Virus genome (UHGV): UHGV-0207246
Length of the DNA stretch: 44,163 nucleotides
Reading direction: 5' to 3' (one strand)
Origin: a virus
The position numbers and the translations under genes were made by a program. The notes under the pieces were generated by a model. It was not told the DNA's origin. It saw nothing but the letters and a program-made list of their open reading frames with translations, and made no database searches. Below, piece by piece: positions 40,767 to 42,778 of the stretch. The number at the start of each line of letters is the position of its first letter. Positions within the stretch are counted from its first letter, which is position 1.

Positions 40767-40795
40767 AATAGTACCCTATTATATTGGTGTCTGCA
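40767..40795 (-). promoter_or_regulatory. class I early-type promoter (TTGCAG-17-TACTAT)
   Basis: Reverse complement TTGCAGACACCAATATAATAGGGTACTAT; same region may carry a rightward TCGATA-17-TATATT promoter. Confidence 0.55.
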
Positions 40796-40840: not shown

Positions 40841-42778
40841 ATGAGCTTACTTACATCCCTAATCAGCCACCAGATATGGCTGCAACGCACCGCATCCGGC
40901 GAAGTGAAAGACCTCACACCGTTCATTCAGGAGATGCGGGATGAAATCAAACGGCAGGTGCTGTTATTCGGTGACGACGGGCGAAGCACTGCGCGACTGA
41001 ATAAATTGTTACGCGACCTAGAAGAAGCACTGACAGGACTTACGGGTGACTGGCAAACAAAGCTGACAGAAGACCTTAAGGACCTGGCGGCGTATGAGGC
41101 TGAGTGGAATGTAAAGACACTCACGGCCAACGTCAACGCTGAATTTGTTACGCCTACTGCCGAACAGGTGTGGGCCGCTGCCGAGTTTCAGCCTCTGTCG
41201 TTAAGCGACAAGCCAGTAGATTTCACTAAGCTGATGGGTGGCTGGGGTGAAACAGAAGTATCGCGCCTGGTAACTGGCGTTAAGATGGGCTTTGTTCAGG
41301 GTCAAACCACACGGCAGATTGTTAAGAATGTTGTAGGCGCTGGCGGACTGGCCGACATCTCTGAGCGTAACGCCGCTACCGTAATACGTACGGCGCTGGC
41401 TCACGTATCCAACGAAGCCCGTAACGAGACGTACCGCCAGAACGACGACATCATCGAGAAATACGAGTGGGTGTCAACGCTGGACAGCCGTACCAGTACA
41501 ACGTGTTTCACGGCTGAAACAGAATTAGCGCCCATCGCGGGGATGGACGCGGTAATGCGCGGACTCTATTCAGGAAAAATCTTTACCATCGAACTTTCCA
41601 ACGGCGAGAAGTTCAGTGGCACCCCGAAACACCCTGTACTCACGCAATACGGATGGACTCCGCTTGATGAACTCGATCCAACTAAGCATGTCTTGTATAC
41701 CACTGTTGACAAAGTGACTGTGCTCGAAACAGTGAAGAACATAAACATGCCAGCCAGAGCGGATTATATTTTTAATACGCTCGCTGATTTCCCCATCAGG
41801 AAAATGGTAAGCACGAGTCCCGCGGCAACAGATTTCTATGGCGATGGAGTGGGACTCAATGGCAAAATCGACATTGTACGGGCCGATTGCAAACTGCGGA
41901 ACTACGTCCACGCCAGCGGAATTAAACAATTCAAAAGCGAGGGTTTCAGTCTTATTCATAGCGCCGCTTTGCTGTCGGACGATAGCTCTGGCGATTTTCT
42001 CCTCCGGGGTGAATGTCCTGTGAGTGTGCCCGCGCTTAGCGAGGCCAAGTGTTTTGACCATAGAATAGAAAACTGTTTTGCTTACTTGGGTCCTTCTTAT
42101 GCACTCAATAGGCGGGACGCCGGACTCGAACAATTCTATAGCCCTTTTTTGATTCAAAATGGTGTCGTTAGAAACCCAACCACGGGGTCGATCATGCATG
42201 AGTCCGAGCTTCTTGAGAAATGTTGTTACCGTGGTGGTAGTGACGCCGTAATTCTTGGCTATGATGCTGGCGGGAGTGCCATCTCGGTACAAAGAACAAA
42301 TATCATCCGCATAAGCGTCGAGTTTAGAACGTGCCATGTTTATACCCTCTCTAGTAGTCAAGGATATTATACAGCAGGTAGTGCGATAGTCAAGAATTGC
42401 AGGGCCAGAGACGGAATGACGTGGGAAATTGGAAAAGGGCCGATGCCGCCAGCGCATCCGAATTGCAGAAGTACCACGGCCCCGGTGATTAGCTCGGAGT
42501 TCGACTTCCTTGATAAAGGCGCAAAACGCGCGGCACGCGGGGCGGACGGCGGTACTCAGGTAAGCGCGGACACAACCTACTACGAGTTCCTTAAACAACA
42601 GCCCGCATGGTTTCAGGACCAGGCGCTCGGCCCTGTTCGCGGTAAGATTTTCCGTAACAGCGGTATATCACCAGAGGAGTTTCGCGTAATATCTGTAGAT
42701 GGTTTTGGGCGTCCGCTCACGCTTAAGCAGATGGCGGAACTCGATAAACGTGTTGCTGATTATCTGAAAGGGGAATAA
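40841..42778 (+). CDS. head morphogenesis protein (Mu F / SPP1 gp7-like) containing a 298-codon intein
   Basis: RBS AGGAGGG; extein motif LDSRTSTT | C RARDGMTWEIGKGPMPPAHPNCRS is contiguous only after removing residues 241-538 of the track ORF. Confidence 0.6.
   Translation: MSLLTSLISHQIWLQRTASGEVKDLTPFIQEMRDEIKRQVLLFGDDGRSTARLNKLLRDLEEALTGLTGDWQTKLTEDLKDLAAYEAEWNVKTLTANVNAEFVTPTAEQVWAAAEFQPLSLSDKPVDFTKLMGGWGETEVSRLVTGVKMGFVQGQTTRQIVKNVVGAGGLADISERNAATVIRTALAHVSNEARNETYRQNDDIIEKYEWVSTLDSRTSTTCFTAETELAPIAGMDAVMRGLYSGKIFTIELSNGEKFSGTPKHPVLTQYGWTPLDELDPTKHVLYTTVDKVTVLETVKNINMPARADYIFNTLADFPIRKMVSTSPAATDFYGDGVGLNGKIDIVRADCKLRNYVHASGIKQFKSEGFSLIHSAALLSDDSSGDFLLRGECPVSVPALSEAKCFDHRIENCFAYLGPSYALNRRDAGLEQFYSPFLIQNGVVRNPTTGSIMHESELLEKCCYRGGSDAVILGYDAGGSAISVQRTNIIRISVEFRTCHVYTLSSSQGYYTAGSAIVKNCRARDGMTWEIGKGPMPPAHPNCRSTTAPVISSEFDFLDKGAKRAARGADGGTQVSADTTYYEFLKQQPAWFQDQALGPVRGKIFRNSGISPEEFRVISVDGFGRPLTLKQMAELDKRVADYLKGE
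41570..42337 (-). CDS. antisense gene inside the intein: tandem HTH DNA-binding repeats plus DUF559 (Vsr-like PD-(D/E)XK) endonuclease, candidate homing endonuclease
   Basis: IGPYNVDFA...IAIEI...GWHVYVL pattern matches DUF559 (GGYRLDFA...LAVEVDG...GWRVLRF); HTH segments ASIIAKNYGVTTTTVTTFLKKLGL and IECIRRTQVSKTVFYSMVKTLGL; RBS GAGGG 7 nt before ATG. Confidence 0.55.
   Translation of the reverse strand: MARSKLDAYADDICSLYRDGTPASIIAKNYGVTTTTVTTFLKKLGLMHDRPRGWVSNDTILNQKRAIELFESGVPPIECIRRTQVSKTVFYSMVKTLGLAKRGHTHRTFTPEEKIARAIVRQQSGAMNKTETLAFELFNSAGVDVVPQFAIGPYNVDFAIESHSIAIEICCRGTRAYHFPDGEISERIKNIIRSGWHVYVLHCFEHSHFVNSGIQDMLSWIEFIKRSPSVLREYRVFRGATELLAVGKFDGKDFS
42366..42393 (-). promoter_or_regulatory. 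promoter for the antisense endonuclease gene (TTGACT-16-TATAAT), encoded within intein blocks F/G
   Basis: Minus strand TTGACTATCGCACTACCTGCTGTATAAT about 30 nt upstream of the antisense ATG. Confidence 0.5.

Follow-up and report, generated by a model that had tools for sequence, protein, structure and literature searches.

Can a homing endonuclease be written on one strand of an intein while the splicing protein is read without interruption from the other? The question is raised by the head-morphogenesis gene of the viral genome UHGV-0207246, a stretch of 44,163 nt (hereafter the window, in whose numbering all coordinates are given). The answer reached here, and judged probable, is that the gene contains a mobile intein with its homing endonuclease written antisense to it.

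The host gene and its intein

The host gene (Table 1) matches PHROG 241 (head morphogenesis) at 5e-146, and its matches to Pfam Phage_Mu_F (6.8e-9) and TIGR01641 (2.4e-12) both exceed the cut-offs; orthologues are annotated as "minor head protein with inserted intein". The sense open reading frame covers 664 aa from a TTG start, the mechanical start being the TTG at 40784, and the ATG at 40841 is preceded by AGGAGGG. From that ATG to 42778 the sense frame is single and uninterrupted, the host gene and intein not being split in two ORFs, and the C-extein has the conserved motif PPAHPNCRS. The host phage of the window element is an E. coli Kagunavirus.

Table 1. Positions of the features discussed, with the evidence or remark attached to each.
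Feature	Position	Strand	Basis or remark
Head-morphogenesis (Mu F / SPP1 gp7-type minor head) precursor gene, intein included	40841..42778	+	PHROG 241, Phage_Mu_F, TIGR01641
Candidate homing unit: intein, 27 nt upstream and 17 nt downstream	41477..42414	.	Identical or nearly so in five intein-carrying phages
Class-1 intein, 298 codons	41504..42397	+	Cys1 (CFTAETEL) to Lys297-Asn298 (IVKN), then Cys+1 at 42398-42400
Intein block A, CFTAETEL	41504..41527	+	Direct reading; aligns with L006, L007 and L009 inteins
Intein block B, GTPKHPVLT (has T-x-x-H)	41618..41644	+	Aligned relatives; opposite strand reads REYRVFRG
Intein blocks F/G, CHVYTLSSSQGYYTAGSAIVKN	42332..42397	+	Opposite strand: endonuclease start codon, Shine-Dalgarno, predicted promoter
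Putative antisense homing-endonuclease gene, 255 aa and TGA stop	41570..42337	-	Intein codon register; conservation, AF2 model, homologues
First helix-turn-helix module, aa 2-43	42209..42334	-	HTH_7, PDB 2lvs_A, model helices
Second helix-turn-helix module, aa 57-96	42050..42169	-	Model helices; resolvase/transposase HTH structures
Vsr-like (EDxHD-type) nuclease domain, aa 111-226	41660..42007	-	Model fold
Shine-Dalgarno GAGGG, 7 nt before antisense ATG	42345..42349	-	Sense Thr-Leu codons ACC-CTC, block F
Predicted sigma-70-like promoter, TTGACT-16-TATAAT	42366..42393	-	11/12 consensus positions in scan
Terminator-like hairpin, 9 bp, 6 G-C, then UAAUUCUGUUU	41528..41550	-	Scan; 20 nt past antisense stop

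A reading made from the window's sequence only had placed Hint splicing blocks at both ends of a 298-codon insert, and had held that its removal restores a Mu F-type motif; it proposed comparison with intein-less homologues as the check. Both claims hold, and that comparison defines the insertion point. The intein-less relative K1ind2 reads DSRTSTI/CRVRDG at the junction (slashes mark the insertion point), exactly 41504-42397 being missing, and about 198 of 202 related phage records are without the intein, with exact boundaries. At nucleotide level, the K1ind2-type target runs ...CGCACCAGTACGATT up to the junction and TGCAGGGTCAGAGAC... from it. Two of the phages that carry the intein, fEg-Eco06 and KMB36, are cultured isolates.

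Of the residues expected in a class-1 intein, Cys1, T40-P-K-H43 in block B (T-x-x-H), Asn298 and Cys+1 are present. The penultimate His of block G is absent from the window, L006 and L007 inteins, which have Lys297 (IVKN) there, and main-family inteins carry T-H-N. Functional inteins with penultimate residues other than His occur, so Lys297 does not exclude class-1 membership. In profile searches, the window sense ORF stayed below the curated cut-offs of Intein_splicing (21.8 bits vs 35.8, E 1.8e-4) and TIGR01445 (17.8 bits vs 24.5, E 4.9e-3), and 59 of 63 related sense ORFs matched Intein_splicing at E<=1e-3. The plus strand encodes a continuous class-1 intein, with Hint lobes at residues 1 to ~93 and ~261 to 298, which is predicted to be spliced at Cys1, Asn298 and Cys+1. 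The ~170 codons between the lobes are kept stop-free and would serve as a linker only, and because they are stop-free the head-morphogenesis precursor can be translated through the insert and then spliced.

The opposite-strand protein and the movement of the intein

On the minus strand, in exact codon register with the intein, lies the 255-aa gene that the sequence-only reading had recognised. Its stop, TGA, is read on the sense strand as TCA (Ser23), and its ATG as CAT (His278). The protein combines two helix-turn-helix modules with a nuclease domain of the Vsr/I-Bth0305I type (EDxHD family). Its AF2 model has a mean pLDDT of 90.6 and a Vsr-type nuclease fold, preceded by modular DNA-binding repeats in the form of the two HTH modules. 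Helices of the first module span residues 2-8, 10-18, 23-30 and 34-43, and PDB 2lvs_A, a tandem HTH protein, matches aa 8-101 at 3.7e-6; helices of the second span 57-71, 76-83 and 87-96, and resolvase and transposase HTH structures were matched. The two HTH repeats proposed earlier are therefore present in the model, with Pfam HTH_7 at 1.6e-4 over aa 9-37, below its curated cut-off. At the C-terminus, a beta-hairpin (E233-238/E242-248, pLDDT ~90) includes REYRVFRG, which is written in the bases of block B. Within the motif LREYRV, the Tyr is invariant and Arg-Val nearly invariant in 70 aligned homing-endonuclease relatives, and the four closest share all of the motif unchanged.

The same reading had proposed a DUF559/Vsr-like core. 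The Vsr-like part holds by model fold, and the DUF559 part does not, Pfam DUF559 not being matched by the antisense protein; as the refuting criterion named by that reading, DUF559 was too narrow, since the Vsr-like fold was found without it. REase_MTES_1575 was matched at 7e-4, below its curated cut-off, and the I-Bth0305I profile weakly, at E 0.085. Because the Pfam sequence matches are sub-cut-off, the Vsr-like assignment is based on the model fold together with this weak I-Bth0305I match.

The active site requires closer attention. The nuclease domain retains Glu131, Asp157, Glu168 and Arg187. In 70 aligned relatives Asp157 and Glu168 are invariant, the first aligning with the Mg-binding Asp of I-Bth0305I and the second with its conserved acid, and Glu131 is nearly so (at least 90%). 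The composite E-D-x-H-D motif is incomplete: Arg175 stands at the general-base His position, and the last Asp aligns near Ser185/Glu186. This His (I-Bth0305I His213, Vsr His69) forms part of a W-H pair in at least 90% of the family; it is replaced by Tyr in L006, Phe in L007 and Ala in Snoke, and the acid aligned with I-Bth0305I Asp222 is absent from L007. Nuclease activity in the window lineage is thus not assured, because the general-base His has been replaced. The loss of this His had been overlooked by the sequence-only reading.

The movement of the intein was evaluated in five intein-carrying phages. Only 4 variable sites were found in the 894-nt intein, vs 98 in 663 nt and 74 in 381 nt of the exteins. 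The intein is 99.6-100% identical in all five, and the exteins differ by 4-14% in all pairs except fEg-Eco06 / BEU35, whose N-exteins are identical. Variation restarts at 41476 and 42415, that is, 17-27 nt off the junctions. On these alignments, the intein has demonstrably spread horizontally in recent times. In a mixed infection, the enzyme would cut the intein-less allele, probably near ...ACGATT/TGCAGG..., and repair from the intein-carrying genome would copy the whole unit together with ~20-30 nt of flank per side. DNA cleavage and its target, as well as promoter activity, are predictions; for site-specific cleavage, the indirect evidence is the near-identity of inteins lying in divergent exteins, with short co-conversion tracts. 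Ectopic homing between similar DNA sites was considered as the origin of the lineage with the DSRTST/C site and was rejected as not robust, the two sites being alike in the window allele and not in K1ind2.

The replaced His and the missing Asp222-aligned acid of L007 would also fit an antisense gene that is real and selected and, in the coliphage lineage, has ceased to cut. Its product would then be a site-specific DNA-binding protein, for instance a regulator or a nuclease partner, and the intein would have spread through ordinary co-infection recombination or with a nuclease supplied in trans. We consider this unlikely, though it deserves weight: the invariant Asp157 and Glu168 and the near-invariant Glu131 argue against it, as does purifying selection over the whole nuclease domain, and an identity tract ending so close to the junctions, seen in five divergent phages, is the mark of break-induced homing and not of random mosaicism.

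Two open frames and the signals within them

The insert might instead be an ordinary in-frame intein with an endonuclease or other domain of a new kind on its sense strand. The minus-strand ORF would then be a by-product, given that an antisense frame in register is the easiest to leave open, with just three codons to avoid, and that the sense interior has no stop codons. We find this very improbable. The chance that the antisense gene avoids TTA, CTA and TCA, the sense-strand stops, is 4e-4 given phage codon usage, and the reciprocal probability for the sense frame is 6e-5. Over the intein interior, identity is 0.42-0.44 for the antisense protein vs 0.23-0.28 for the sense frame, with BLOSUM sums of 359 vs 102, and nucleotide differences concentrate at antisense third codon positions (75/60/110). 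With a sense-guided alignment as control, the antisense protein was still conserved and the sense interior still was not. The five phage copies are polymorphic at four sites, and at three of these the change is silent in the antisense frame and alters the sense protein. The antisense protein, which folds confidently to a known nuclease fold and whose start signals are conserved, has homologues at E 3.5e-77 to 1.7e-10; the sense interior matched no family in profile searches (Pfam, PHROG, NCBIfam), and a search of a 5.8-billion-protein database with the sense intein gave two partial matches only. Purifying selection acts on the antisense protein, its whole nuclease domain included. Both a chance ORF and a sense-strand domain were rejected on the codon-position tests.

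The case for the sense interior as linker only, which these comparisons suggest, is an evolutionary one, because the AF2 model of the sense intein is unusable: built from 3 sequences, it reached a pLDDT of 32 and is uninformative about disorder in the interior.

The double arrangement is also widespread. A related-locus scan with a profile of 59 sequences was carried out, and the family comprises 419 IMG/VR contigs and 1,737 cluster representatives at E<=1e-30. Of 80 viral loci inspected, 79 have an open sense frame, as do L006, L007, L009, L011, L012, Snoke and Gordonia Vivi2. An ordinary in-frame endonuclease intein with an antisense frame broken in relatives, which the sequence-only reading had named as a contrary outcome, is contradicted by the recurrence of the double open frame in relatives at just 26-53% protein identity. 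Least probable of all is that a free-standing endonuclease once invaded the intein and left a decaying remnant, neither expressed nor needed: antisense ORFs are expected to decay fast once homing stops (bioRxiv 10.1101/2025.01.02.630785) and the arrangement is broken in one relative, L020, but all five phage copies, and relatives down to 26% identity, have the antisense ORF intact, recent polymorphisms are mostly antisense-synonymous, and the start and Shine-Dalgarno are conserved.

The preferred reading, an endonuclease encoded opposite the intein, would have the enzyme expressed from its own signals. The GAGGG and TTGACT-16-TATAAT elements reported earlier inside blocks F/G are indeed there as sequence. 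In the predicted promoter, the Val-Lys codons of IVKN supply the -35 element and the Tyr-Tyr codons of GYY the -10 element, and antisense transcription, which may also modulate the head-gene mRNA, is predicted to start near 42359; the GAGG is provided by the Leu codon CTC. Across blocks F/G only 2 of 20 sense third positions differ, vs about half elsewhere. GAGG occurs at equal spacing to the start in L006, L007 and L009, 32 of 37 main-family members have CTC or CTT as the corresponding Leu codon, and the antisense ATG and GAGG are kept in divergent relatives at sense-synonymous sites. The predicted promoter is retained in L007, L006 has CATAAT, and in L009, the most distant relative, it is not kept at the same position. 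At the other end of the gene, the C-terminal beta-hairpin and stop codon are written into blocks A/B. A terminator-like hairpin follows the stop, a weak feature whose fold has a z of -3.19 vs shuffles in the window; local hairpins also occur in the corresponding regions of L006, L007 and L009, none of them significant. A conserved terminator was therefore dropped, the fold being significant in the window only.

Described relatives and a possible shared unit

The sequence-only reading was aware of no described antisense arrangement of this kind. The novelty does not hold, the first reports of such genes dating from 1998. Antisense LAGLIDADG genes in inteins (Synechocystis DnaX, Chloroflexus SpoVR-like) are attributed to Gorbalenya (1998) and Gogarten (2002) as cited in bioRxiv 10.1101/2025.01.02.630785. 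They likewise place an endonuclease ORF on the strand opposite a contiguous intein; the window nuclease is Vsr-like, not LAGLIDADG, and their hosts are cellular. The arrangement of an antisense endonuclease within an intein is rare.

Closer still are the "VSR -1 ORF" inteins of the same 2025 preprint, in which Gosselin, Arsenault and Gogarten described VSR-like genes lying antisense within contiguous inteins, the host proteins being MuF-like minor capsid proteins of Gordonia phages and other actinobacteriophages (bioRxiv 10.1101/2025.01.02.630785). By tblastn with the window protein, the MuF genes of Vivi2, Fosterous, Affeca, Angelicage and Malisha were matched at E 7e-12 to 4e-10, and these five are entered as "minor capsid, MuF-like, VSR -1 ORF" in its supplementary table. 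The published members share with the window an opposite-strand endonuclease ORF in a contiguous intein, an uninterrupted sense frame, homology to the window protein and the host protein family. The window element differs from them in its host, an E. coli Kagunavirus instead of an actinophage, in a protein identity of only 24-30%, in the loss of the general-base His, and in its site, DSRTST/C, which lies 22 codons upstream of the HPN/CRC site of the main family (Snoke, Salmonella phages and Vivi2 included). Promoter, ribosome-binding, start and stop signals embedded in the splicing blocks are not discussed in that preprint. No new category is opened here, because homologous elements were described in 2025; what is new is the coliphage members, the second insertion site 22 codons upstream, the signals in splicing-block codons and the loss of the general-base His.

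The EDxHD homing-endonuclease family and I-Bth0305I were described by Taylor et al. (2011; PMC3239194) and Dassa et al. (2009; PMC2677866). I-Bth0305I is encoded by a sense-strand gene in a group I intron, whereas the window gene is antisense within a contiguous intein; its His213 aligns with Arg175 of the window protein, at a similarity that is marginal (E 0.085). The members described by Dassa and others are free-standing genes between split-intein halves. These fractured genes resemble the window in having a Vsr-like endonuclease gene with its own expression signals within an intein in phage DNA, and differ in that their host gene is two ORFs joined by trans-splicing, whereas the window sense frame is continuous across the endonuclease gene. 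Invasion of an intein by a free-standing endonuclease is the evolutionary route proposed.

A bolder extension, which we hold only tentatively, is that intein and endonuclease form an obligate two-strand unit and not a chance nesting, and that the coliphage lineage has taken a new site, rebuilt its promoter, remodelled its active site and is still homing. Blocks F/G may double as promoter, ribosome-binding site and start, and blocks A/B as hairpin and stop, with codon choice keeping this across hundreds of viral contigs. The coliphage lineage may have moved 22 codons upstream in the same gene, where the penultimate His may have become Lys, creating the -35 element, and the active site may have been remodelled without the canonical His.

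The locus illustrates how opposite strands of one DNA can serve two selfish elements over almost 770 bases, the splicing domain and the homing endonuclease each constraining the codons and regulatory signals of the other. It is informative about the way in which inteins gain their endonucleases, and is a strong natural example of long dual coding in antisense. The members in E. coli phages, unlike the published actinophage ones, are tractable for studies of splicing, homing and expression from the antisense strand. Although the family is common in viromes, annotation pipelines miss its endonuclease gene, which is unannotated in every GenBank record inspected, including that of the therapeutic-candidate coliphage KMB36.

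An antisense gene inside the intein

The window derives from a Kagunavirus-like (Guernseyvirinae) E. coli phage. By megablast its head-morphogenesis gene, which as a mechanical ORF starts with a TTG codon at 40784, matched 202 phage records, Escherichia and Salmonella phages predominating. Full-length coverage of the gene was found in only four of these (fEg-Eco06, vB-Eco-KMB36, BEU35 and Ec1-ASingh), and the remaining ~198 gave a two-piece alignment from which the middle of the gene was absent. The insert runs from Cys1 (CFTAETEL) to IVKN, followed by Cys+1, and at this junction the intein-less phage K1ind2 reads DSRTSTI/CRVRDG (slashes mark junctions). The annotation "minor head protein with inserted intein" already exists in two GenBank records, and a 900-bp intein was mentioned for vKMB36 (Arch Virol 2024, PMC11162368); an opposite-strand gene is neither annotated nor mentioned in those two records or that article.

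Such a gene, proposed in the sequence-only reading, was confirmed: the ORF shares its codon triplets with the intein, its ATG being the reverse complement of the block-F His278 codon CAT and its TGA stop that of the Ser23 codon TCA. In this in-register overlap either strand is open only when the other avoids TTA, CTA and TCA. With Leu and Ser codon usage taken from the phage itself, such avoidance has a probability of 4e-4 in the antisense gene and 6e-5 in the sense codons that it overlaps. The antisense ORF is not a chance ORF. Three close relatives of its product (53%, 45% and 26% identity, E 3.5e-77 to 1.7e-10) were identified in a 5.8-billion-protein database, and each of their metagenomic contigs likewise has an in-register reverse frame that is open throughout, coding for a Hint intein within a Mu F-like protein.

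Comparison of the window with one of these relatives (L006) over antisense residues 19-185 showed 75, 60 and 110 differences at antisense codon positions 1, 2 and 3, with identities of 0.44 for the antisense and 0.23 for the sense protein, and BLOSUM62 sums of 359 and 102. Realignment guided by the sense protein, a bias opposite to this result, gave identities of 0.42 vs 0.28 and sums of 307 vs 164. Among five phage copies, three of four polymorphisms are antisense-synonymous and alter the sense residue. Since all these tests favour the antisense protein, the intein interior is maintained for it, and the sense frame there is only held open. Over the stretch shared by the endonuclease C-terminus and the N-terminal Hint lobe, both frames are equally conserved (27/11/29 at positions 1/2/3).

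Features of the intein locus and of its counterpart in Escherichia phage Snoke
Feature	Coordinates	Strand	Basis
Mu F / SPP1 gp7-type head-morphogenesis gene	40841..42778	+	PHROG 241 5e-146; Pfam Phage_Mu_F 6.8e-9; TIGR01641 2.4e-12
Intein insert, 894 nt / 298 codons	41504..42397	+	alignment to intein-less K1ind2 gene, exact
Antisense ORF, 255 aa + stop	42337..41570	-	codon triplets shared with intein frame
Putative promoter TTGACT-16-TATAAT	42393..42366	-	11/12 consensus positions
Terminator-like hairpin, then U-rich tract	41528-41550	-	20 nt past antisense stop; z -3.19
Snoke intein, with unannotated antisense Vsr-like ORF	L093 1393-2211	+ (in locus)	in-register sense frame open

A Vsr-like protein and its relatives

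Pfam matches to the antisense protein were weak and under cut-offs (HTH_7 1.6e-4, REase_MTES_1575 7e-4). With a 4-sequence profile, the tandem-HTH structure 2lvs_A was matched at 3.7e-6, and the catalytic domain of the homing endonuclease I-Bth0305I (3r3p_A) marginally, with an E value of 0.085 over residues 131-225. An AlphaFold2 model with 70 relatives as input (mean pLDDT 90.6, pTM 0.69) places two helical HTH modules before an alpha/beta domain and a C-terminal beta-hairpin. On these matches and this model, the protein is predicted to be a bipartite Vsr-like (EDxHD-type) endonuclease. The presumed general base is His213 in I-Bth0305I and His69 in Vsr (Taylor et al., 2011). This histidine, within a W-H pair, is conserved in at least 90% of the endonuclease family; the position is occupied by Arg175 in the window, and by Tyr, Phe and Ala in L006, in L007 (another of the three relatives) and in Snoke, respectively. 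In a 70-sequence alignment, Asp157 and Glu168 are invariant and Glu131 nearly so.

A profile search of a word-indexed database found at least 181 family proteins, and a full scan of 1.84 billion representatives found 1,737 at E<=1e-30. Nearly all carry the C-terminal tail (R/C)EYRV(I/V)(W/R)GAGE...; the same bases, read as reverse complement, encode intein block B, T-P-x-H-P-V-L-T. Scanning IMG/VR yielded 419 contigs with family matches; of the 80 best loci, 79 had no stop in the in-register reverse frame across the endonuclease match, against a mean of 12 stops in the two other reverse frames. Among 63 long sense ORFs (set A4), Intein_splicing was matched in 59, Phage_Mu_F in 39 and portal fusions in 10, so that the intein-endonuclease unit rides in several head-gene architectures; one of the ten intein-bearing portal-Mu F fusions also has a NUDIX domain.

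Most family inteins are located at a site reading PPxHPx/C...THN/CRC (site b), and those of the window, L006 and L007 lie 22 codons upstream, at DSRTST/C...VKN/CRxxDG (site a). The record of the Kagunavirus Snoke (MK931441) annotates an intein of 273 aa at site b, at Cys244 of the head gene; the Snoke nuclease also lacks the family histidine (GGGWA). By query match alone, the main family further reached 63 Salmonella phage records, annotated as head-protein or hypothetical-protein.

The novelty claimed in the sequence-only reading does not hold, because antisense Vsr-like inteins were recently described in actinophage MuF-like minor capsid genes (bioRxiv 10.1101/2025.01.02.630785), and the present case is a new, divergent coliphage example of that kind. 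Five points go further than this literature: enterobacterial hosts, a second insertion site, the family size in viromes, splicing-block codons that would double as putative expression signals, and a histidine-less active site in an element that is apparently still mobile.

Two other loci are of note. L012 (2800-5799, minus strand; the contig of L090, IMGVR_UViG_3300031576_000021) has two inteins in one Mu F-like gene, the first at a site-a-like position (DDRV/CFLAGTPI...IRVHN/CPVCEY) and the second, which carries the antisense Vsr-like gene, at site b (PPFHPN/CLPGD...THN/CRC). L020 (3983-4852, IMGVR_UViG_3300012005_000094) has the sole broken sense frame across the endonuclease gene among the 80 loci, interrupted by 5 stops; directly upstream lies a contiguous Mu F motif, IHPG-CRC, and the reverse frame keeps a degenerate block-B-like VPNQVVL. 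The locus may hold either a decayed intein or a free-standing endonuclease gene; in that case it could represent a step by which the arrangement arose or was lost.

Putative expression signals in the splicing blocks

The anatomy proposed earlier was supported by the K1ind2 boundaries, antisense-frame conservation, the HTH-HTH-Vsr-like model and signals at the predicted positions; promoter activity, translation, splicing and cleavage are inferences. A candidate Shine-Dalgarno GAGGG lies 7 nt upstream of the antisense ATG, and in blocks F/G the sense codons for Val-Lys, Tyr-Tyr and Thr-Leu spell both it and the promoter-like element. Both promoter hexamers are retained in L006, with the variant CATAAT, and in L007; L009, the third relative, retains GAGG and the ATG, and the window's promoter-like element is absent there. 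Across blocks F/G (60 nt), only 2 of 20 sense third positions differ between subfamily members, vs about half elsewhere, which points to a constraint additional to that from the intein protein.

Of 37 members of the larger family, 31 have CAT and 6 have CAC as the block-F His codon, read as ATG or GTG on the antisense strand; as the Leu codon, 32 of the 37 have CTC or CTT (antisense GAGG or AAGG). At the end of the intein, I-(I/V)-T-H-N is preferentially written with ATT, ATA or GTA, and ACA. In the last five intein codons plus Cys+1 of main-family loci L013-L092, block G has unusual codons: ATA for 11 of 12 Ile and GTA for 11 of 14 Val. The antisense sequence is consequently TGTTATAAT or TGTTACAAT, which resembles an extended -10 element and precedes the endonuclease start by ~55 nt; this region matches TATAAT at five or more of six positions in 22 of 35 members. 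In the window lineage this block-G position instead holds a putative -35. The penultimate intein residue, the usual His in the main family, is Lys297 in the window (AAG, 42392-42394) and Lys in L006 and L007, and the Val-Lys codons GTC-AAG create the putative antisense -35 hexamer TTGAC. Lys297 may reflect a trade-off of splicing chemistry against endonuclease expression. In sense-strand terms, the terminator-like hairpin falls between blocks A and B; the equivalent fold in relatives was not significant, unlike that of the window.

Mobility of the element

Only 4 of the 894 intein nucleotides vary among the five phages, whose inteins are 99.6-100% identical. In nine of ten phage pairs the N- and C-exteins diverge by ~4-14%, and in the tenth (fEg-Eco06 and BEU35) the N-exteins are identical and the C-extein differs by 6%. 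Taking all five together, 98 of 663 N-extein and 74 of 381 C-extein nucleotides vary, and variation restarts 27 nt before the first intein junction and 17 nt after the second. By megablast, phages with and without the intein are equally close to the window. Such a pattern indicates probable recent homing with short co-conversion tracts, which in turn argues that the intein-endonuclease unit would be active although the histidine is missing.

A 45,080-bp viral contig (L010, IMGVR_UViG_3300045988_006100) encodes an antisense protein 100% identical to that of the window, and either is the window's own genome or brings the carriers of the site-a intein to six. In a 1487-bp NCBI contig (P0121), a predicted 238-aa protein has an unrelated N-terminal part fused to the last 105 residues of the window's intein (100% identical), which are followed by the first C-extein residues; this may be a misassembly, or a recombinant bringing a half-intein into another gene.
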